A DNA stretch of 64,000 nucleotides from a virus (IMGVR_UViG_3300028559_000025:12728-76727); one strand, 5' to 3'. Counted from the stretch's first letter, positions 55,648 to 64,000 are shown. The notes: generated from the sequence alone by a model not told the origin. Made by a program: numbers and translations.

Positions 55648-56870
55648 GGTGGTCTCTTTCTATTTGTTGGCGGTCTATAGATAAATTATACGTCATAACG
55701 TATAGGTCTGTCAAGCAGTCTTTATATCCCTCTCCCCACTGCTTATCCTCAAACTCTTTATATTGCATTTCATTCATCATATTTTTAAGTTCACCGTGCA
55801 TGATATCAATTAGTGGTATGGAGATATCTTCTAATGCTTTAGTTAAATGTTCGGGTAGGAAAGGATACTTAGCGCTCATTTATATACTCCAATAGGTGAT
55901 CACAGGTAGCAATGGCTCCTTCATAGTAAGCGTCTGACTCATAGTACTCGTCATCACTAATAGGAATATCATTGTTAGCGTCCTCAACGTCTTGCTCCAA
56001 GGAGATTTTGTGAATTTTTATATACTCTCGTAATGTGTCTATGTTCATTTTAATCCATAAAATATTTTGCATGCTTCGCAGTAGCAGTCGTTGTGACTCC
56101 ATATTTCCTTTAATTCGTCACAATATGGGTCATCGTATTCGCTTATGTGCTTTAGTTTTGATATGTCCATAGTATTAAGTATAGTGGCTTTCGCCAATAA
56201 TATCAAGGTGTGGCTCTGTGAGTTGTGTCACATCATATCTGTTTATCCTAATAATGTGAGGCTGTTCACAGATACAGTTAGGCTGAATCACCAGGGAATT
56301 ACTAGTTGTGATTTCAAACAGGGTATCACAATTAGTACATATATACTCATGCTTAGTCCACATACTATTTCTCACATTCACATTCACATTTATAGTTAGG
56401 GTCTTGGATGGGTATTCTACAAAAAGGATGAGACTTCATTAGTCAAAGTACCCTTCTGCCCAAAGCCCTTGTAAGAATTCACTTGCCATGTACAATCTTG
56501 AGTGTAGCCAAGGGTCATCGTCAGGATTCACGGTAGTTATAGCAGAGTCAATAGCATTAGTCATCTCATCTAAATCTTCTTTAGTATATCCTAACATTAC
56601 TCTCCCCAATACTTTACAATAGTTTCCATAGTGATATGTAGGTGGCAGTCACAGGGTTCTCCACCCATGTTCTCCTCAAATTCAAAGTGCGATAGGTTGT
56701 CCTCATAGATTTCTTCTACTAGTTCGTGTATTGTGTATGGTTTGTATGTTGTAGTCATATATTTATTGTACAGGATTCTGCAAAAAAAAGCAAGTCCTCT
56801 TAATACAATTTTCTGAGAATATTTATACTAGTTCTTAAATGTCCAATTTGTACCATTTTGCCTCGGGGCC

Positions 56871-57008
56871 TCTACAATAGGAGGACAAAAGGTCTCTGGA
56901 GCTAATTTTTATTTACATTTAATTAAACAAGGTTTGCCAGATGGCTATCAGACATTATGTGCTAATTGCAATAATATTAAACAATGGGATCGTGTAAAGC
57001 GGTTCTAA
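56871..57008 (+). pseudogene. C-terminal remnant of an HNH endonuclease
   Basis: Translates as ...FYLHLIKQGLPDGYQTLCANCNNIK...; no start codon before the in-frame stop at 56829. Confidence 0.6.
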
Positions 57009-57071
57009 CGAGAATTGAACTCGTGCTTCGGCAGTGACAGTGCCGTGTCCTAACCACTGGACCATAGAACC
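57000..57071 (-). tRNA. tRNA-Asp(GUC)
   Basis: Acceptor GGTTCTA/TAGAACC, anticodon arm CGGCA-CTGTCAC-TGCCG, T-loop TTCAATT. Confidence 0.9.
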
Positions 57072-57074
57072 TAA

Positions 57075-57103
57075 TGAGCAGTTTTAAATCATGCTCAGGA
57101 TTT
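57075..57103 (-). ncRNA. 29-nt pseudoknot repeat, copy 1
   Basis: AAATC-CTGAGCAT-GATTT-AAAAC-TGCTCA. Confidence 0.7.
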
Positions 57104-57137
57104 TTGCGAACGTTTCTGAAGTCGCAATTTTATTGTA

Positions 57138-58154
57138 TCATGCTAGTTGCATGACACCCTGCACAACTTTTAGTAAGCGATTTTTTTCTGCGTTGATTAC
57201 AGGGTCAAATCCGCTTGCGCTTGCAAGAATAGATTCGTTAGAACCACCTCTTGCAGAACGATACCAGTCAAGGCGTTCAGTAAGTGCATTAAACGCACCC
57301 CACGCATTACCAGCGATCATTCCGTTAAACTCACCAGTGTAAATGTCGTTAATAACATCTACCTTGTTTTCCCATTTCTTGATTGCGCCCTTAGAATCTT
57401 TCTCTGGCTTAGGATAAGCAGCGAGAATGATATCGTTGAATTGTTGAGCAGATACTTCTGCCTGAATCATAGCGTTAGCCATGAGATCAAATGAGTCCAT
57501 GTACTTATGAGCAAGCCCAAGAGTCTCACGTGCAACCTGAATTTTACCTTGTGCAGTTTGTGTGTGACGAATCTTGAAAGATTGCTTCACGCCACCCTTG
57601 CGCTTAGTGGTGTTAAGTGCAAGATTGAGAGTGTTAGCGCACACAACACGAACGGGTGTAATGCTTGCTTGAATAGCGATTGAGCCATCGTGTGATGTGT
57701 TGATGAGCAAATAAGTCTTTACCTTATCTGCAACACCGCTAGGGTCTAGGATAGTTTCACGCTCTAGTGCTAACGCACCGAATACGACACGACCACCCTT
57801 GATTGAGCCAGCAGTTTCCCAACGACCACCGCCGTCTAGGATATTATCACCAAATGAAAATAAATCTTCATTCTGCATAACATGATAACGCTCACCTACA
57901 ACGCCAAGAATATCAGTTTGTGTGTTATCAGTGGGATTGGTACGCAATACATACTGATAATTTTTATCGCTTGTTAAGTGTGATGGGGTTTCCAAATCCT
58001 CTAAGCGAACATTCCAGTTAGAAAGGTTAGCAAGATCTAACATTTCTGCGGTGGTTTTTTCCTCAGTGAATACGGTACCCAATCCATGCCAAGCAGGTTC
58101 ACGAAATGACGCAAAAGATGCAACGCCGTTTTGTGTTTCTAGTTCATGTGCCAT
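57138..58154 (-). CDS. DUF932/DUF945 phage-plasmid family protein
   Basis: PAWHGLG, ETAGS..GG, NTSHDGS, TPVRVVCANTL and W.AFNALTE motifs. Confidence 0.85.
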   Translation of the reverse strand: MAHELETQNGVASFASFREPAWHGLGTVFTEEKTTAEMLDLANLSNWNVRLEDLETPSHLTSDKNYQYVLRTNPTDNTQTDILGVVGERYHVMQNEDLFSFGDNILDGGGRWETAGSIKGGRVVFGALALERETILDPSGVADKVKTYLLINTSHDGSIAIQASITPVRVVCANTLNLALNTTKRKGGVKQSFKIRHTQTAQGKIQVARETLGLAHKYMDSFDLMANAMIQAEVSAQQFNDIILAAYPKPEKDSKGAIKKWENKVDVINDIYTGEFNGMIAGNAWGAFNALTERLDWYRSARGGSNESILASASGFDPVINAEKNRLLKVVQGVMQLA

Positions 58155-58186
58155 GAGTTTTCTCCTTTTTGTTTGTTGTTAATATA

Positions 58187-58209
58187 ATCATACACTAGGC
58201 CACTAACAA
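58187..58209 (-). promoter_or_regulatory. WTGTCA-N11-(-10) promoter
   Basis: TTGTTA-GTGGCCTAGTG-TATGAT. Confidence 0.55.
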
Positions 58210-58274
58210 ATGCAAATCAGGCTAGTTAGATATGGGATAAATCGGACATTTTTTTAATGTTTCGTAAAGACACG

Positions 58275-58290
58275 TGTGATATTGGTCACA
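58275..58290. promoter_or_regulatory. CRP/GlxR-like palindrome
   Basis: TGTGA-TATTGG-TCACA, perfect consensus. Confidence 0.65.
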
Positions 58291-58324
58291 TGGGGCCCGA
58301 GGCCCAAATTTTGCGGGAGCTGAA

Positions 58325-58353
58325 TGAGCAGTTTATAGACATACTCAGGTCTA
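58325..58353 (-). ncRNA. 29-nt pseudoknot repeat, copy 2
   Basis: TAGAC-CTGAGTAT-GTCTA-TAAAC-TGCTCA. Confidence 0.7.
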
Positions 58354-58367
58354 TTAGTAGCCCCCTA

Positions 58368-58784
58368 CTAAATATCTATTCTGTCAACACTGGATGACAA
58401 ATAAGTTACGCCTTGAGGCTCTGATACTGAATCAAAATCAATATCATGAATTAAGTTCTGCGCTTCTTCTTCATTAAGTGCATTAACTGTAATTGAATAA
58501 AGAACTGTAACTTCTAGTTCAAATTCTTTTGTTAGTTCAAATCCCATGATTTCTGCAATTGCTTCTGCATGCTCTTGTGCAAGCGAAAGGTTTTCCAATT
58601 CGCTAAGAGTCCACTCTTTCATTGCCTCAACCATGCGGTTACGTTCTGCAGATTCTGCATATGAGCCCTGCTTTACTTTTTGGATGTGCTCTTCAAGTTG
58701 TTGAATGCGTTCTTTATTTTGTACAAGAGTAGTTTCTAAAAACTCTCGTGTCATGTAGTGATTATCTATTACTGGCTGGTCCAT
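58368..58784 (-). CDS. Hypothetical protein
   Basis: 138 aa, coiled-coil N-terminus, RBS present. Confidence 0.6.
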   Translation of the reverse strand: MDQPVIDNHYMTREFLETTLVQNKERIQQLEEHIQKVKQGSYAESAERNRMVEAMKEWTLSELENLSLAQEHAEAIAEIMGFELTKEFELEVTVLYSITVNALNEEEAQNLIHDIDFDSVSEPQGVTYLSSSVDRIDI

Positions 58785-58811
58785 GGGGTCTCTTTCTATT
58801 AGTTGTGTGGT

Positions 58812-58840
58812 TGAGCAGTTTTGCGACTTACTCAGGTCGT
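58812..58840 (-). ncRNA. 29-nt pseudoknot repeat, copy 3
   Basis: ACGAC-CTGAGTAA-GTCGC-AAAAC-TGCTCA. Confidence 0.7.
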
Positions 58841-58873
58841 TTGGGTTCAGGACTTTAAGTTGCCCCCCAAGTT

Positions 58874-59296
58874 TTAGAGGTAGCGAGCCACCGCTTGATA
58901 GGTTGATGTGGAAACTGTTTCCTCATCTGTCATCTTTAGAATACGGATAGCATTTGACATTTCCTCTTTTTGTTCACGATAAGTGTGCTGATGGATAACC
59001 TCAAAATCCTTTTCAGGTTCTGATGGGAAAGTTCCTTCTTTTGTGATTATGTCAAAATCAACATTGAGTGTGTTGCTCCAAGAACGATAGTTTGTGCGAA
59101 GGTTCTCAGCCTTTGAGAAGTTGGCAATAGCCCACTCACCAATTTGCTTTTTCCAAGCCTCATAAGCAAGTGTGTGTTGTGCTTCTTTTGCTGATTGTGT
59201 TGCGTAGTCTGACTCTAACTTAGCGAGTGCAGTTTCAAGTGCGTTAATTACTTTTGGTGTTGCGATTTTTACTGAGATTGCTTTCTGTCGTGCCAT
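58874..59296 (-). CDS. Hypothetical protein
   Basis: 140 aa, AAGGA RBS, own promoter. Confidence 0.6.
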   Translation of the reverse strand: MARQKAISVKIATPKVINALETALAKLESDYATQSAKEAQHTLAYEAWKKQIGEWAIANFSKAENLRTNYRSWSNTLNVDFDIITKEGTFPSEPEKDFEVIHQHTYREQKEEMSNAIRILKMTDEETVSTSTYQAVARYL

Positions 59297-59326
59297 AGTG
59301 TTTTTCCTTTTCTGTGGGTTATTTAT

Positions 59327-59349
59327 ATTATAGGGGGTGGGTCTGACAT
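59327..59349 (-). promoter_or_regulatory. WTGTCA-N11-(-10) promoter
   Basis: ATGTCA-GACCCACCCCC-TATAAT. Confidence 0.65.
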
Positions 59350-59354
59350 TAAGT

Positions 59355-59383
59355 TGAGCCTTTTTATATCATGCTCAGGATAT
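59355..59383 (-). ncRNA. 29-nt pseudoknot repeat, copy 4
   Basis: ATATC-CTGAGCAT-GATAT-AAAAA-GGCTCA. Confidence 0.65.
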
Positions 59384-59395
59384 TGGATTAACTAA

Positions 59396-59563
59396 TTATG
59401 AATTAGCCTTCCAAGTTGTCCAGCGTGTCATGCCGTCTACATCTAACTTAACACGCACTGTGTCATTTGCAGTTGGTGAGATTTCCAAGATTGTTCCTGT
59501 TACCTTTGACTTCTGTGAAGTGTAGAGGTCGCCCACCTTGTATGTTGCTGTTGCTACTGTCAT
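59396..59563 (-). CDS. Small SH3-like beta protein (not in the ORF track)
   Basis: MTVATATYKVGDLYTSQKSKVTGTILEI...RWTT; AAGGAG RBS. Confidence 0.6.
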   Translation of the reverse strand: MTVATATYKVGDLYTSQKSKVTGTILEISPTANDTVRVKLDVDGMTRWTTWKANS

Positions 59564-59659
59564 TTGTTTCTCCTTTGTAGTTGGTCTTGCTTATATCTAA
59601 GTGTAGCAAAAAATCTAAGAAATATCAAATCCATTTCCTAAAAATCTCACTATTTGGAA

Positions 59660-59675
59660 TGTGATCTATATCACA
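59660..59675. promoter_or_regulatory. CRP/GlxR-like palindrome
   Basis: TGTGA-TCTATA-TCACA. Confidence 0.65.
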
Positions 59676-59744
59676 CTATTGACTCATCATGAACAATAGT
59701 AGTCCTATTAGGGATAGTAGAACGAATGTATCCATTTAGCCCCC

Positions 59745-60467
59745 TCATTTTTTGGTTGCACTAAACACTATATCAGATTTCTCATAAATACACAATTTGC
59801 AGGTAGCACACGCAGACCCTGCCTGTGAGATAAGTGGAATAGCCTTTTTATTCTCAGGGCACTTCGCACCTACCTTGCCAGTTAACTCTTTCATATCCGC
59901 TTGCCCCAGTGCAAAGTTTTTTGCAAGGTATGCAAGGGAGATCCCATTGTTAACCTTGAGGTCAATACCAATAGCCTTGTTCTCGCTATCTGTGGAATAA
60001 TATAAAGATAGATTATCAATACCGTTTAGCATTAGGGCGGCAGACTTAACACGTGTGTATACCCAGAATTGAATGTCTGGTTGTTCTTCAATTACTAGTT
60101 TCCATGCCTGCGTGTATTCATCATTAAAGAAGTCTCCGTCCCAGTGAATACGGAATAACATCTTAGCATTGCGCTTAACACAATCTGTCTTAAACTCTGC
60201 AATCATTTCTGAGATCAAAGAATACATTTCTTGCATGTCTGCATTGCGTAGTAGTTCCCAGTTATGCAATAGGTTTTTCTTTACTGTAGGGAAGACCTTT
60301 TCTAATTTGCCTGCATAGCACACTGTTTCACACACACTGGTAGCGCCAGGACATGAATATGCTTTTCCTGCAGGTAATCCAAAAGTGTTAGCAATACTTG
60401 CTTGCTTACCATTAGGTGTAACGGCATTAGCCACTTTTCTATCTTTTGATCTAAGTAATTTGGTCAT
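59745..60467 (-). CDS. Gp88-like (mycobacteriophage gene 88 family) Fe-S protein
   Basis: CPGAT..C...CYA, FRIH..GDF and W.YTR motifs. Start placed at the ATG at 60467. Confidence 0.75.
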   Translation of the reverse strand: MTKLLRSKDRKVANAVTPNGKQASIANTFGLPAGKAYSCPGATSVCETVCYAGKLEKVFPTVKKNLLHNWELLRNADMQEMYSLISEMIAEFKTDCVKRNAKMLFRIHWDGDFFNDEYTQAWKLVIEEQPDIQFWVYTRVKSAALMLNGIDNLSLYYSTDSENKAIGIDLKVNNGISLAYLAKNFALGQADMKELTGKVGAKCPENKKAIPLISQAGSACATCKLCIYEKSDIVFSATKK

Positions 60468-60472
60468 GGGGG

Positions 60473-60619
60473 TTACTCGCTTTCTTTCTTTAATTTTAGC
60501 AGGTAGGACTGACATTTCTTTCTGTCATATTTCTTTTTATTGGGGATAGCTGAGGCAGCATTAGATCTACGTAACTCCATAAGGATACGTAACTGTTCAG
60601 GGGTTTTTTTCTGTCTCAT
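60473..60619 (-). CDS. Small basic protein, leaderless (not in the ORF track)
   Basis: MRQKKTPEQLRILMELRRSNAA...; TTGATA-17-TAAGAT promoter with the ATG 6 nt downstream. Confidence 0.55.
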   Translation of the reverse strand: MRQKKTPEQLRILMELRRSNAASAIPNKKKYDRKKCQSYLLKLKKESE

Positions 60620-60923
60620 GTAATAATCTTACCAGATATGGGGAAAAATATCAAATCTCGTAAATGTGATGTAGATCACTTGGGGACTCGGGCCCCACTA
60701 GTCTAGATAAACGTACCAATCAACTTCTTCATCAAAATCAAAATCAACTGTTGTTGTTTCACCAAAGTCGTTGCTTACTTGAACACTGTATATGTCTCCA
60801 GTAGAATCAACATCAATTGAAATTACTTCAACAATATCATCATCAAAAGAAATTAGATCACCAATCTCTAGTGCATCTGCTGTTAGTACATCAGCTTTTA
60901 TTAGTTCCATGACATTTATTGTA

Positions 60924-61232
60924 TCACTCATTTTGCTCCTCATCATCAGAGTATGCAACTGGCTCAATAAACCATGATAAGTGGTGTTGTTCTACAATAG
61001 CGTGTGCAGGTGCTTGAGTATCTCCACGATAGAGAATCTGAAAGTCACCAACTTTAGGCATATCAATCATGCGGTCATAGTCCTCGTCATAGTAAGCGTC
61101 AATGGCTTCAATGCAAGGTTGTACCATTTCTGCGGGTACTGGTGGATAGTGATTACCCTTTAAGTGATAAAGTAATTGTGTTTCTAGGTCTAACACGCTA
61201 TCTTTAATTCCTAGTGCTGTTACGCTTCCCAT
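60924..61232 (-). CDS. Conserved actinophage hypothetical protein
   Basis: HL.GNHYPPVP..M...CI.AI...AIVEQHHL. Confidence 0.55.
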   Translation of the reverse strand: MGSVTALGIKDSVLDLETQLLYHLKGNHYPPVPAEMVQPCIEAIDAYYDEDYDRMIDMPKVGDFQILYRGDTQAPAHAIVEQHHLSWFIEPVAYSDDEEQNE

Positions 61233-61373
61233 ATTACTTACCTTCCCAATCCTCAATTACTCCGTCAATAGCGTCCTGTATATCTGCTTCAAATATTGCT
61301 AACTCATCTTGAGTTAATTTGCTAATAAAAGAATTCTTATCATTAGGCTTCCATGTAATTACTTCTGCATCTA

Positions 61374-61586
61374 TCACTTTACTACGACCAATCCGCTAGT
61401 ATAAAAAGTTTTTGTGTACATCTTGCCTGTTGGCGTTGAGAGATTGACTGTGCGATATTCTTTAGCCATTCCCCAATCAGTAAATAGGAAAAAGTTTTCC
61501 CATGCACCATATTCGTTTTCATAGCGTTGTACCCAATGAGGTGCTTCTCCATCATAGGCTGAGGTGATTGCGTATTCGTATTCCAT
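61374..61586 (-). CDS. Hypothetical protein
   Basis: DWG.A.EY.TVNL..P.GKMYTK. Confidence 0.55.
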   Translation of the reverse strand: MEYEYAITSAYDGEAPHWVQRYENEYGAWENFFLFTDWGMAKEYRTVNLSTPTGKMYTKTFYTSGLVVVK

Positions 61587-62033
61587 TTATTCATTCCAAT
61601 CTAGTGTGAGTTCTAATTCTAACATGTCTGAGTAGTGTTGGTCAATTCCGCATGACCAGCAATAAAATCCGTCTATATGTAGGTTTTCATTACATGCAAC
61701 GCACAAGGCTTCCATCATATTACCCAAAATACTCACCCATATTCTTTTCATCTTGCCAGTCACGATAGTGTGGCTCGCATAGTTCGTTGATATTGATAGA
61801 TATTGCAGAGATACTCATGCGCTGAGCAAAACATACTTTGCATTCGTTCATAGGGGGTTCCTTCTTTCTGTTGATATATTTTATCTTACACTATGGGGCT
61901 GACAAGGGCAATTCGTAAGGGCACTTAATCTCAAAATGTGAGAAAATTTGGGAGTGATTAATGTCACAACGTAAAGCCTGTGGATAACCTGTGGGCGACA
62001 CGCCAGGGCGCGTCGGGCCCCATTTTTGAAGGT

Positions 62034-62062
62034 TGAGCAGTTTTAAATCTTGCTCAGGATTT
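62034..62062 (-). ncRNA. 29-nt pseudoknot repeat, copy 5
   Basis: AAATC-CTGAGCAA-GATTT-AAAAC-TGCTCA. Confidence 0.7.
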
Positions 62063-62190
62063 TTTTATTTACTTTCGCAAATCGTTTTTTATTTCAACAA
62101 GATCATCTTTTAAATCTTGCCACATTAAACGAAAACAAGCAAGCACTCCAAGAAATAAAATCACCTGCACGATTGTTGTGATAACTCTGC

Positions 62191-62376
62191 TCATGCATTT
62201 ACTTCAATTTCTTTTGTGCAAGCGTCCCAAAATTTATTTTCATCAAATCTTGGATTGTCTGCGCTAAACCATTCGCTGAATTCAAAAACTAAATCTTTAA
62301 AAGTTTTAGAATCCATTTCATCAACGAATAGATTTAGAATCTTTGCAGTTTCTACATAGTCTTTTCTAGTCATCAT
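62191..62376 (-). CDS. Conserved phage hypothetical protein
   Basis: MTRKDY...A..L...F..DNPRFD..KF..AC. Confidence 0.65.
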   Translation of the reverse strand: MMTRKDYVETAKILNLFVDEMDSKTFKDLVFEFSEWFSADNPRFDENKFWDACTKEIEVNA

Positions 62377-62536
62377 TAGATGTTCACCAAATTTTCTACA
62401 TGTGCAGAAATCTGATTGTATGCATTAGAGCAATCATAGCAATATGTTTCCGTAGGGATACCACCTAGCATGAATGCATCTATGCCTGAATAAACAAGGC
62501 TTGTGCTTGTGCATTTAGTTACTTTACATTCTTTCA

Positions 62537-62743
62537 TTACTCTGCCACCTTTAGCGTTGCATATGAATTTCCTTCATTGAGTTCATCAAGCGCAGACTGA
62601 ATGCGTGGTGCAAGTAGTTCTTTTAGCATTGACTCAAGCATAGCAACCTGATCTATTGTAGGTAGTGCAAGCAATTGCTTAGCGATTGGATGTGTTTCGT
62701 CTAATTCAGTTACGAATTGGAGAGAGTGAGGTATTGTTATCAT
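62537..62743 (-). CDS. Hypothetical protein
   Basis: ORF with AGGA RBS. Confidence 0.5.
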   Translation of the reverse strand: MITIPHSLQFVTELDETHPIAKQLLALPTIDQVAMLESMLKELLAPRIQSALDELNEGNSYATLKVAE

Positions 62744-62763
62744 TGTTTTTTATTTCCTATTCT

Positions 62764-62958
62764 TTAGTTTGTTTTTGTTAGTGTAGAAGTGCCACGAAGT
62801 GTGCCACTAATTCCAAGTGTATCGCAAGCGATTTTTACTGATACCCCAACTGGTAAAGTTTGAGGGTATTGTGAGATGAATTGAGCAACTGCACCCCTAG
62901 AAGGGAGAGCGATTGTTTTTACTGAGCCATTGAAAGACTCTAGTTTTACTTTGTACAT
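62764..62958 (-). CDS. Hypothetical protein
   Basis: ORF downstream of the promoter at 62994-63016. Confidence 0.55.
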   Translation of the reverse strand: MYKVKLESFNGSVKTIALPSRGAVAQFISQYPQTLPVGVSVKIACDTLGISGTLRGTSTLTKTN

Positions 62959-62993
62959 AAGTTTGTACCTACTTTCTTTTTGTTGATTGTTTT

Positions 62994-63016
62994 ATTATAT
63001 CAGGGGGCACTGACAA
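62994..63016 (-). promoter_or_regulatory. WTGTCA-N11-(-10) promoter
   Basis: TTGTCA-GTGCCCCCTGA-TATAAT. Confidence 0.65.
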
Positions 63017-63214
63017 TTAGTTAGCGACGGCAATCGTGCGATAGGTGGTAAGGATACGGTTATCAGGTTGTACCTCTACAAGATAAGACTCGCAACCCTC
63101 ATACCATACGGCTTTAGGGTGAGGCTCTGCACTTACGATTTTACCCGTAAGAGTATTTGAGCGATATTCTTTTCCTACTAGTAGGGTTTGGACATTGTAG
63201 ACATTGGCTGACAT
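63017..63214 (-). CDS. Hypothetical protein
   Basis: AAGGTG RBS, own promoter at 63249-63271. Confidence 0.55.
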   Translation of the reverse strand: MSANVYNVQTLLVGKEYRSNTLTGKIVSAEPHPKAVWYEGCESYLVEVQPDNRILTTYRTIAVAN

Positions 63215-63428
63215 ATTGTCACCTTCTTTTCTTTTTGGTTATATAAATATCTTACCATAGGGGTCTGACATTTCTAGCGGTTCTAAGGGGTAACGCTCCC
63301 CTTATTCTAGGTTGACAACCTAGCGTGATTACTTTTTCACTATAAAACCTTATTTATTTTTATATCTAATTATAGCATTTTTGGCTGACATTATCAAATC
63401 CAAATTCGGACATATCCGACATTTTGAA

Positions 63429-63444
63429 TGTGAGGTTGGTCACA
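63429..63444. promoter_or_regulatory. CRP/GlxR-like palindrome
   Basis: TGTGA-GGTTGG-TCACA. Confidence 0.65.
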
Positions 63445-64000
63445 CTTGTTTTTCTACTTATTTAATTTTACTCCTCTAGAGTACCATAAAAATATCAAAA
63501 AGTCAAGGCGACACGCCGTAAAATAGTGAAAATAATATTGTGATCTTAAACACATTTGCAGCTGCGACACGCCCGAATGCGTCGGGCCCCATTAGACCAT
63601 TAGTTTATTTTTTAGTAACACTCACCGCACATTGGAAAATAATATTCGCCGTCATCCGTTACGAATTGTGTTGTTTCTTTTTTACAAGAATCGCATTTGT
63701 TCATTTTTTATTCTCCATCTCTAAATCTTTTGCAAATAGTTTTGCAATTCTTTCTTTTTCTTTATCTGGCGTGTTAGCCCATAAATATCCTAGCAAATAG
63801 TGTGTGCCAGAATCACGATCATTGTTGCGAATCTTGCGTGTTGTAGCAAGTACATCTTGTAGTTCAATGCTTATCATTACTTTACCTCATTCTCTTTAGC
63901 GATCATCTCTTTTAGATACCAAATTGCTACCTGCCTACCATTCTTGTAGCCAGTACCTACAATGGTGCGAGGTGCAACCTCTCTTGCCATTAGTGCGTCA

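Follow-up and report, generated by a model that had tools for sequence, protein, structure and literature searches.

A compact RNA pseudoknot repeated at gene ends in a phage and found in many other phages and bacteria, with a possible part in defining message 3′ ends

Analysis of the window, a stretch of 64,000 nt of viral DNA, revealed five copies of an element that folds at the RNA level as an H-type pseudoknot of about 28-29 nt on the coding strand, with covariation in both helices. As judged from sequence searches, it is one member of a large family that is spread over many unrelated phages and bacteria and absent from the RNA catalogue Rfam 15. Family members lie mostly just past stop codons, and we tentatively propose that the knot may form a compact roadblock, one that sets or shields the upstream mRNA's 3′ end, a reading we judge close to, though short of, probable.

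Five copies behind five different genes

All five 29-nt copies were found on the minus (coding) strand, where the preliminary description had placed them and with the sequences it had quoted. A search with the pattern of the 24-nt core gave 5 matches compared with 0.00 expected from 100 dinucleotide-preserving shuffles, and the whole 76.7-kb virus record contained these five copies only. The copies are separated by 458-2650 nt, each with a different ORF upstream. The copies and their neighbors are as follows, with bit scores of the knots from model R1.

56999..57071, minus strand: tRNA-Asp(GTC), 70.6 bits, starting 3 nt after copy 1
57075..57103, minus strand: pseudoknot copy 1, 46.6 bits
57138..58154, minus strand: gene upstream of copy 1, 338-aa DUF932 protein (PF06067, E 4e-47; phrog_1221)
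58325..58353, minus strand: pseudoknot copy 2, stem 1 AGAC/GUCU, 43.9 bits
58368..58784, minus strand: gene upstream of copy 2, 138 aa, no Pfam family
58812..58840, minus strand: pseudoknot copy 3, stem 1 CGAC/GUCG, 43.7 bits
58874..59296, minus strand: gene upstream of copy 3, 140 aa, no significant Pfam family
59355..59383, minus strand: pseudoknot copy 4, the "AG" variant, 41.6 bits
59396..59563, minus strand: gene upstream of copy 4, 55 aa, no family
61993..62020, minus strand: hairpin of -16.9 kcal/mol without a U tract, 13 nt downstream of copy 5
62034..62062, minus strand: pseudoknot copy 5, 46.3 bits
62069..62194, minus strand: gene upstream of copy 5, 41 aa, no family

Read 5′ to 3′ on the minus strand, copy 1 consists of the 5′ arm of stem 1 (positions 2-5), a C that forms loop 1 (position 6), the 5′ arm of stem 2 (positions 7-12, UGAGCA), a junction nucleotide (position 13), the 3′ arm of stem 1 (positions 14-17), an A-rich loop 3 (positions 18-23) and the 3′ arm of stem 2 (positions 24-29, UGCUCA). 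Copy 5 has a stem 1 identical to that of copy 1. The U at position 11 of copy 2 gives a U.G wobble, as found at pair 11-25 of copy 3, and in copy 4 loop 3 ends in A and the 3′ arm of stem 2 is GGCUCA, making pair 12-24 an A.G.

The spacers between stop codon and knot measured 34, 14, 33, 12 and 6 nt for copies 1 to 5, in agreement with the 3′ UTR placement reported earlier (6-34 nt after a stop); the element lies in 3′ UTRs and intergenic spacers. The absence of a U tail (0 of 5 copies) and the 3-nt gap between copy 1 and tRNA-Asp were likewise reproduced. On the downstream side, copy 2 is followed by a hairpin, GGGCC-UCG-GGCCC, at about 58293-58305, the next start codon lies 27 nt past copy 3, and copy 4 is followed by a promoter-like AATGTCAGACC...TATAAT.

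Covariation and conserved positions of the fold

Stem 1 (positions 2-5 with 14-17) is 95-99.6% paired, with 205 double-change cells, and none of 500 shuffles came up to the observed value. The preliminary description had reported a stem 1 that varies in sequence and yet stays paired; this was borne out by more than 100 different stem 1 sequences, closed by an invariant C-G pair (C5-G14 in 135 of 141 relatives), but the fifth pair did not survive, because pair 1-18 is complementary only at chance level (about 37% of 141 relatives), so that stem 1 is really 4 bp rather than 5. Stem 2 is 92.5% paired, with double changes at pairs 8-28, 9-27, 10-26 and 11-25; its core is 4 bp, GAGY with GCUC, and the outer pairs 7-29 and 12-24 are facultative. 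In IMG/VR, the alternatives seen at pair 9-27 were A-U (at least 119 contigs), G-C (at least 118), G.U (35) and A.C (15). G.U outnumbers A.C by 67 to 8, and the sense strand is therefore the folding strand, as the preliminary description had argued from the wobble.

Between the helices, loop 1 is a single invariant C, and the stems are set apart by one junction nucleotide. The A-rich loop 3 (NNAAAM) has an invariant AAA and C as M23 in 115 of 141 relatives, and it can fit into the stem 1 minor groove. A G at +1, which would pair with the loop 1 C, is avoided (4 of 141). Nearest-neighbor energies of both helices are weak (stem 1, 0 to -4 kcal/mol; stem 2, -3.4 to -5.6 kcal/mol), and a block would have to depend on tertiary contacts, a point against the roadblock reading discussed below.

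The near-invariance of C6, A20-22, the C5-G14 pair and a W-W pair at 4-15, together with weak helices as in preQ1-I and conservation kept across assemblies from many phyla, could be expected of a specific binding site, either a small-molecule aptamer or the operator of a conserved RNA-binding protein, that regulates decay or expression. We consider this quite unlikely, since the upstream genes share neither a common theme nor a co-occurring protein family, no expression platform recurs, tRNAs and ribozymes start only 3-5 nt downstream of knots, no Rfam riboswitch matched, and base triples of the luteoviral and coremin-type knots explain the same conserved positions. A cmscan search of Rfam 15 (E up to 10) over 56000-64000 and 57040-57140 returned tRNAs and noise only, consistent with the earlier view of the element as undescribed. 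The resemblance to preQ1-I (RF00522) that had been noted at the outset extends to H-type topology, a 5-bp P1, an A-rich 3′ tail and a short P2, but it proved topological only: RF00522 did not match at E up to 10 even with a 101-nt search stretch, and the knots lie beside genes unrelated to queuosine rather than in the 5′ UTRs of queuosine or transport genes and lack an expression platform. The same applies to the ToxI antitoxin, which consists of tandem repeats of about 36 nt beside a toxN-like gene; the copies here are dispersed rather than in a tandem array, and Rfam gave no match. No positive evidence was found for a ligand sensor.

Gene-end contexts and a proposed role at message 3′ ends

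The motif is not confined to this phage: other phage contigs have it, as do bacterial assemblies whose labels span many phyla. The genes upstream of knots are diverse, encoding DUF932, Hsp20, RIIB, RNR and capsid proteins as well as small peptides. The order of DUF932 gene and pseudoknot recurred in 18 related phage contigs, and at another locus (L122) the knot again follows a gene end resembling that upstream of copy 5. An upstream same-strand stop codon lies no more than 40 nt away in 105 of 135 phage instances, with a modal distance of 4 nt and a minimum of 3 nt, and the distance from stop codon to first stem 1 pair has a sharp floor at about 5 nt. By comparison, the distance from knot to next start codon in the phage set ranges from 5 to 449 nt. 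This stop proximity and the variable distance to the next start argue that the knot goes with the upstream gene.

The knot also lies just 5′ of RNA ends of several kinds, a second argument for a roadblock. Fifteen tRNAs start 3-13 nt downstream of a knot, 12 of them tRNA-Asp; at one locus (L205) two successive units each consist of a gene, a knot and a type III hammerhead with its cleavage site 5 nt past the knot; the Rfam DUF2800 RNA abuts the knot at 4 loci; and genuine intrinsic terminators follow it at several bacterial loci. In bacterial contigs a convergent gene comes next in 38 of 92 instances (three of the 38 were checked against Pfam), so that those knots have no downstream cistron to serve.

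From these contexts we infer that each copy would be transcribed as a section of its immediate upstream gene's mRNA, where it would fold as an H-type pseudoknot. The RNA would be cut just downstream, by RNase P at a tRNA, by a hammerhead or by an endonuclease in the G-poor spacer, or would alternatively terminate at a nearby hairpin, so that the upstream RNA would have the knot at its 3′ terminus or close to it; for copy 1, the RNase P site of tRNA-Asp would leave the knot as that 3′ end. A terminal knot may then halt 3′-to-5′ exonucleases short of the stop codon, independently of sequence, and with at least 5 nt between stop codon and first pair a terminating ribosome would not need to melt it. 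Hammerheads are known to flank single genes in prophage operons and have been proposed to give transcripts differing stabilities (PMC3088659, PMC6765202). Among the functions first listed for the element, an exonuclease block or processing signal would fit these contexts best, and it is to this part of the list that our tentative preference applies. Several observations count against a roadblock. Across phyla, the sequences of stem 2, loop 1 and the A-tract are more strongly conserved than a plain obstacle would require, and this could reflect a specific partner instead; a second protective structure seems redundant where a terminator hairpin follows; and one group of peptide genes in bacteria ends at a UGA that is itself part of the knot, so that ribosomes must melt the knot there.

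Termination, listed with these functions, fared less well. The location at gene ends, the hairpins after copies 2 and 5, and some convergent gene pairs without room for another terminator might suggest a transcription signal for termination, pausing or antitermination. An intrinsic terminator does not fit: positions +1 to +9 show no U tract (T 28-47% per position) and the nested helices are weak. Other forms of transcription signal are very unlikely as well, given that co-transcribed sequence comes directly downstream, be it a tRNA, a ribozyme or the ribosome binding site of the next gene, and that the element recurs per gene, not once per operon.

The lower limit of about 5 nt is also the amount of mRNA that the ribosome encloses in its entry tunnel past the A site, and the ribosome helicase site lies near +11. 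A knot here might thus be a barrier to sliding, reinitiating or readthrough ribosomes that insulates downstream structured RNAs or cistrons, or might modulate termination. Coremin and WCC knots do stall scanning ribosomes and stimulate −1 frameshifting, WCC knots without hp2, an element considered below (PMC10520033, PMC10321173). This reading appears rather improbable, since the spacing varies from 4 to more than 60 nt whereas ribosome contact would be expected to need a single distance, selection to keep a tough fold out of the ribosome's reach accounts for the lower limit just as well, and the geometry of frameshifting at an upstream slippery site is inapplicable to a knot past stop codons.

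Finally, dispersed copies in fixed orientation directly after gene cassettes, with G.T pairs that would be tolerable in DNA too, could be structured single-stranded DNA sites of recombination or replication (attC- or REP-like) or, as suggested in the preliminary description, decoy RNAs against host defence. Both are highly improbable. Two overlapping helices with different centers make a pseudoknot, not a palindrome; the close association with stop codons and with sites of RNA cleavage speaks for RNA; and no recombinase association was seen. Nothing positive supported a decoy, and in bacterial assemblies the knot also follows an apparently chromosomal small-peptide gene, which argues against a phage-specific one.

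Comparison with known systems

The closest described fold is that of coremin (xrRNA-C) and xrRNA-WCC of eukaryotic RNA viruses, which the preliminary description did not name. These RNAs are known from beny-, cucumo-, picorna-like, hypo- and chrysoviruses (Dilweg et al. 2019 PMC6546385; 2023 PMC10520033; 2023 PMC10321173). Like coremin, the knot described here has a 4-bp first stem closed by C-G, an unchangeable one-nucleotide loop 1 and an A-rich spacer, the AAAC linker, with a proposed placement in the stem 1 minor groove. It also shares with coremin and WCC a GAG-CUC stem 2 core followed by A (as in SPlV5), which covaries here (G8-A9-G10 with C26-U27-C28), and, like the SPlV5 element (8 nt), lies a few nucleotides past the last stop codon. 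Coremin double mutants with A7G and U19C are functional and the single mutants are not (PMC6546385, PMC10520033, PMC10321173), a rescue mirrored by the natural alternation of A-U and G-C at pair 9-27 of the phage and bacterial knot.

In contrast, the loop here has 8 nt, C-UGAGYA-W, compared with YGAD or YGNNAD in coremin; it shares the Y start and the A-D end but has a U before the G. Among coremin loops CCGAAA is inactive and an octaloop is active (PMC6546385, PMC10520033, PMC10321173). Stem 2 has 4-6 bp rather than 3, and the element is encoded by phages and bacteria, which have DNA genomes and no Xrn1.

These likenesses raise the possibility of a coremin-like roadblock working in the 5′-to-3′ direction, which would stop RNase J or 5′-end-dependent RNase E scanning from the upstream cistron, shield the RNA downstream and let neighboring cistrons decay independently. 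Xrn1 and ribosomes that come from the 5′ side stall at the coremin fold (PMC6546385, PMC10520033, PMC10321173), and a Shine-Dalgarno sequence and start codon lie no more than 45 nt past the knot in 38% of phage instances. Knots of this kind are not known to resist 3′-to-5′ enzymes, which counts against our favored 3′-end role. We nevertheless consider a 5′-to-3′ block unlikely. Coremin's second hairpin, hp2, was found in those studies to be strictly required for resistance to Xrn1. Here a hairpin of at least 4 bp that starts 0-3 nt past the knot shows no enrichment, occurring in 8 of 136 phage instances (7.1 in shuffles) and in 3 of 98 bacterial instances. Moreover, hammerheads or RNase P would cut the knot off from the downstream RNA, and where the next gene is convergent or a terminator alone follows there is nothing downstream to protect. 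Unlike those of coremin, the contexts here favor the upstream rather than the downstream RNA as beneficiary.

The knots of about 28 nt that promote −1 frameshifting in luteoviruses (BWYV, PLRV) are also H-type, with a loop 1 of 1-2 nt that has a C in the stem 2 major groove and an A-rich loop in the stem 1 minor groove (PMC10321173). Luteovirus knots, however, lie in reading frames 5-9 nt past a slippery heptamer, unlike the knots here, which follow stops at variable distances. Judged by position, the knot does not resemble a −1 frameshift stimulator: the large majority of knots come after a stop codon and only 3 of 141 lie within a same-strand ORF of at least 100 aa.

Two systems resemble the proposed 3′-end role rather than the fold. 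Like the hammerheads that punctuate operons in prophages and phages (Perreault et al. 2011, PMC3088659; RF00008), the knot is an RNA element that recurs between the single genes of polycistronic, phage-type transcripts, and at L205 knot and type III hammerhead form one unit. The knot differs in having no ribozyme core, in lying on the 5′ side of the cut and in occurring far more often without a ribozyme. At the 3′ ends of MALAT1 and MEN-beta, RNase P cleavage at a tRNA-like structure leaves a triple helix. Those are eukaryotic lncRNAs with a U-rich/A-rich triple helix and no homology to the knot in sequence or fold, but the logic is alike, in that a compact base-triple structure 5′ of an RNase P site becomes a protected 3′ end.

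Five copies in an actinobacterial-phage-like genome

Reading the minus strand of 56900-62300 gave five 29-nt elements in exact agreement with the sequences quoted in the preliminary description, which had also placed all of them on the coding strand after the ends of ORFs and the first of them 3 nt from a tRNA-Asp gene, as we found:

57075-57103 (-), copy 1, 34 nt after the stop codon of a 338-aa ORF; 3-nt gap to tRNA-Asp
58325-58353 (-), copy 2, 14 nt after a 138-aa ORF
58812-58840 (-), copy 3, 33 nt after a 140-aa ORF
59355-59383 (-), copy 4, 12 nt after a 55-aa ORF
62034-62062 (-), copy 5, 6 nt after a 41-aa ORF

A 24-nt core pattern matched these five positions and no other in the window (0.00 expected from 100 shuffles), and the complete 76.7-kb virus record has no further copy. 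The record originates from lake water, the sequencing runs listed as containing this phage being all lake-water DNA runs, and its gene content is actinobacterial-phage-like, with DUF932, GP88 and tblastn matches to Streptomyces and Mycobacterium phages. Comparison of the copy-bearing region with isolated phages yielded only short, weak nucleotide matches, and no convincing copy was found in the cultured Streptomyces phage Jay2Jay (best match 17 bits), which has a DUF932 homologue of 53% identity.

Other features were observed in this part of the window:

59300-59354 (-), promoter-like AATGTCAGACC-N(6-9)-TATAAT directly 3' of copy 4, conserved after the equivalent copies in two related contigs (L051, L088)
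61979-61987 (-), perfect DnaA box TTATCCACA just 3' of the hairpin behind copy 5, with similar words at the same place in contigs L122 and L020
63277-63349 (-), a second, divergent tRNA-Asp(GTC), scoring 49.6 bits versus 70.6 for the first, with no pseudoknot upstream
56217-56232, 56255-56270, 58275-58290, 59660-59675, 60665-60680, 61953-61968, 63429-63444 and 63539-63554, TGTGA-N6-TCACA palindromes in the early region shared with the pseudoknots, upstream of promoter-like sequences

These palindromes, which are CRP/GlxR-like, number nine in the window at up to one mismatch versus 3.3 expected, and eight of the nine lie in the last 8 kb. The DnaA box was rejected as a meaningful site, the single match being about what is expected by chance (~1) and not significant.

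Both stems of the pseudoknot covary

A phage metagenome search, as suggested in the preliminary description, recovered a large family with strong stem covariation. The core-pattern scan of IMG/VR matched at least 119 contigs, many of the phage instances being orthologous sites of related phages and hence not independent. Among the matches listed, 142 of 143 had at least three of the five flanking positions (1-5 with 14-18) complementary, and there were more than 100 distinct stem sequences. In an alignment of 129 distinct 29-mers, in which stem 2 was fixed by the search pattern itself, positions 2-5 and 14-17 were paired in 95% of cells, 205 cells carried double changes, and covariation as strong as that observed arose in 0 of 500 shuffles; shifting the partner by one to three columns reduced pairing to 23-33%. 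Four base pairs of the 5-bp stem 1 first proposed (2-5 with 14-17) were thereby upheld, whereas pair 1-18 showed chance-level pairing only. The closing pair C5-G14 was near-invariant, and pair 4-15 was nearly always A-U or U-A.

For unbiased variants of stem 2 (positions 7-12 with 24-29), a stem-1-only covariance model was searched against 50 whole phage records and 20 regions, giving 62 distinct gapless hits. Among these, pair 8-28 occurred as G-C, A-U, U-A and G.U, pair 9-27 as A-U and G-C, pair 10-26 as G-C, U-A and G.U, and pair 11-25 as C-G, U-G and U-A. These four core pairs together had a single unpaired cell, and the outer pairs 7-29 and 12-24 were frequently lost. To test stem 2 independently across a whole database, IMG/VR was scanned for three alternative states of pair 9-27.

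Table. Instances of the pseudoknot in IMG/VR by state of pair 9-27
A-U (canonical): at least 119 contigs
G-C (compensated): at least 118 contigs; among the matches listed, 121 of 123 instances formed two or more of the three variable stem-1 pairs
G.U wobble: 35 unique instances
A.C mismatch: 15 unique instances, several near-identical

Because stem 2 covaries as well as stem 1, the element is a real pseudoknot (the knot), and the structure model is strongly supported. Since G.U outnumbered A.C (67 versus 8 across all pairs, 28 versus 8 with the pattern-biased pair left out), the sense strand is the folding strand. G was rare at the position following the knot (4 of 141 instances), where it would pair with C6 of loop 1 and abolish the loop. 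Loop 3, the A-rich linker at 18-23, accepted insertions of 2-4 nt, and the stem 2/stem 1 junction accepted an extra small hairpin in a copy on another contig (L157:3543-3586, plus strand). Taken singly, the helices of the window copies have low stability (0 to -4 kcal/mol for stem 1, -3.4 to -5.6 kcal/mol for stem 2), which together with the invariance of C6 and A20-22 points to stacking and base triples as the predicted source of the fold's stability.

Gene 3' ends and RNA cut sites

ORF calls at loci outside the window were heuristic. In phage contigs, a same-strand ORF stopped within 40 nt upstream of the knot in 105 of 135 instances, with a mode of 4 nt and a minimum of 3 nt. As position 1 is unpaired, the first pair comes no sooner than 5 nt after the stop codon, a distance matching the length of mRNA that the ribosomal entry tunnel encloses past the A site. 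A barrier to ribosomes is nevertheless decidedly unlikely, as the variable stop-to-knot spacing argues against a function needing ribosome contact. The distance from the knot to the next start codon was broad (5-449 nt). A Shine-Dalgarno sequence and start codon lay within 45 nt 3' of the knot in 52 of 137 phage instances, a tRNA within 20 nt in 15 (tRNA-Asp in 12, with the same synteny as in the window) and a stable hairpin in 11, the remainder having no recognisable element. The knot is coupled to the upstream stop codon and to no fixed downstream element. The genes ahead of phage knots were diverse, including DUF932 (18), Hsp20 (10), RIIB-like (5), ribonucleotide reductase (2), major capsid protein, tail proteins and many small unknown ORFs. 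With no gene theme and no expression platform, a riboswitch is disfavoured, and recognition by a specific ligand or protein is an improbable role for the knot.

Among prokaryotic assemblies, scanned at one genome for each species, the knot was present in at least 120 contigs. Labels among the matches listed included Saccharibacteria (many), Geobacteraceae and other Deltaproteobacteria, Omnitrophota, Bacteroidota, Firmicutes, Rhizobiales, Actinomycetes, Chloroflexota and others, a MAG label being no proof of chromosomal origin. Binning of phage or prophage DNA into MAGs may account for many of these contigs. A convergent gene came next after the knot in 38 of 92 scorable bacterial instances, and textbook intrinsic terminators lay 3' of the knot at several bacterial loci. 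The knot would thus often be the last element of its transcription unit, followed by a convergent gene or by a terminator only. The knot itself has no U tract, as the preliminary description had observed, and co-transcribed tRNAs and ribozymes follow it, so that it is rejected as an intrinsic terminator; a role as a transcription signal of any kind is very unlikely.

A recurrent bacterial set consists of genes for small conserved peptides of ~20-35 aa, around 25 aa for the ...AHC(S/D)EGC...S form, whose UGA stop codon lies within the knot:

L196, L212, L218, L223, L234, L239, L249, L264, L286, L289 and L294, peptides of the type ...R(V/T)AHC(S/D/K)EGC...S
L207, L232, L250 and L279, a second type, ...ATHCSTCGS...

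These genes show synonymous-codon variation under varied labels (Deltaproteobacteria, Aminicenantes, Actinomycetes and others). The loci checked had a Peptidase_C26 gene upstream and a convergent Wzm/Wzt/cytidylyltransferase operon.

At some loci the knot adjoins an RNA cut site or another structured RNA:

L205:7271-7624 (-), Polynucleobacter MAG contig, two successive gene/knot/type III hammerhead units resembling a punctuated cassette array
L026:285-445, L241:5432-5592, L097:1616-1771 and L283:5051-5208, DUF2800 RNA (RF02960, 135-160 bits) starting at the very next nucleotide after the knot

Of the hammerheads on the Polynucleobacter contig, one scored 50.5 bits and thus exceeds the Rfam gathering score of 48.5, whereas the other, at 41.2 bits (E 2e-7), falls short of it. 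Stem III begins right 3' of the knot, with cleavage predicted 5 nt past position 29; the first knot there has a fully compensated U-A at pair 11-25. Because the knot lies directly 5' of the predicted cut, each processed message would start with the ribozyme fold and finish with the knot. The same outcome would follow via RNase P where a tRNA starts 3-13 nt past the knot, so that in every case with an adjacent defined cleavage site the knot would be left at the 3' end of the upstream fragment. Candidate hammerhead-like cores after the knot at L008 and L011 were found by regular expression only and are below the Rfam gathering score. For the DUF2800 RNA motif, the knot may be an overlooked neighbour on the 5' side or even a component. 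A tRNA-like 3' end (CCA directly after the knot) was rejected as a general feature, being present in 14 of 141 phage instances, mostly related tRNA-followed loci, and in 2 of 106 bacterial ones, the background level. Hammerheads are known to flank single genes of prophage-type polycistronic RNAs and to cleave in vitro and in vivo (Perreault et al., PMC3088659), and a review proposed that such flanking gives transcripts differing stabilities (PMC6765202); neither paper describes this knot.

The tie to the stop codon, the unit-final place and the geometry of cleavage lead us to propose, from sequence, that the knot is a putative roadblock, fixing where the upstream message ends and shielding that 3' end. 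We give this proposal somewhat less than an even chance, because the helices have little thermodynamic stability and the closest fold so far characterised acts as a block from the opposite side. Among the alternatives, a DNA-level site or a decoy in defence is extremely improbable. A roadblock to exonucleases or ribosomes would explain how individual cistrons of phage early operons have lifetimes of their own, would connect the RNA biology of phages with the coremin xrRNAs found in eukaryotic viruses, and would offer synthetic biology a very short, portable part for stabilising or insulating mRNA. Gene 3' ends in bacteria are thought to depend mainly on terminator hairpins and REP-like stem-loops.

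Comparison with known RNAs

The knot is absent from Rfam, widespread, ~28 nt long and very strongly covarying, and it is found at gene 3' ends and RNA cut sites. To our knowledge, small structured RNAs that are sequence-conserved over many bacterial phyla and phages are rare, the known ones being mostly riboswitches, ribozymes and protein operators. Its novelty with respect to Rfam was borne out by cmscan of 56000-64000 and of a 101-nt stretch, which gave nothing at the motif at E values up to 10. No description of the element was found in the full-text literature searched, and it goes unmentioned in the main text of Weinberg 2017. The resemblance to preQ1-I aptamers and ToxI pseudoknots noted in the preliminary description is one of topology only, a defining feature of each failing in the knot, and a frameshift stimulator was rejected on the same ground.

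The closest likeness is to the Watson-Crick variant of coremin, the xrRNA-C of eukaryotic RNA viruses (PMC6546385, PMC10520033, PMC10321173). Both have a 4-bp stem closed by C-G, one unchangeable loop-1 nucleotide, a stem-2 core of GAG/CUC followed by A, an AAAC linker with proposed docking in the stem-1 minor groove, and a site a few nt past the last stop codon. The mutational rules of the coremin variant, under which function survives the double change from A-U to G-C but neither single change, parallel the natural variation of the knot. In contrast, hp2, the second hairpin strictly required for the Xrn1 resistance of coremin, is not enriched 3' of the knot, whose 8-nt loop starts with Y and ends in A-D but has a U ahead of the G of YGAD, whose stem 2 is longer and whose hosts lack Xrn1; a coremin-like block to 5'-to-3' degradation is unlikely. 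The knot might, though this is less likely than not, be a DNA-encoded coremin counterpart, a self-sufficient ~28-nt 'end-cap' spread by phages over many bacterial phyla that would withstand the exoribonucleases of bacteria and mark the 3' ends of mRNAs with no need for terminator hairpins. If so, bacteria would have their first described class of exoribonuclease-resistant RNA, and one fold would be common to phages and eukaryotic RNA viruses. The shared features, taken with the differences, place the knot with coremin in kind, as a compact, putatively triple-stabilised pseudoknot, but outside the coremin family.
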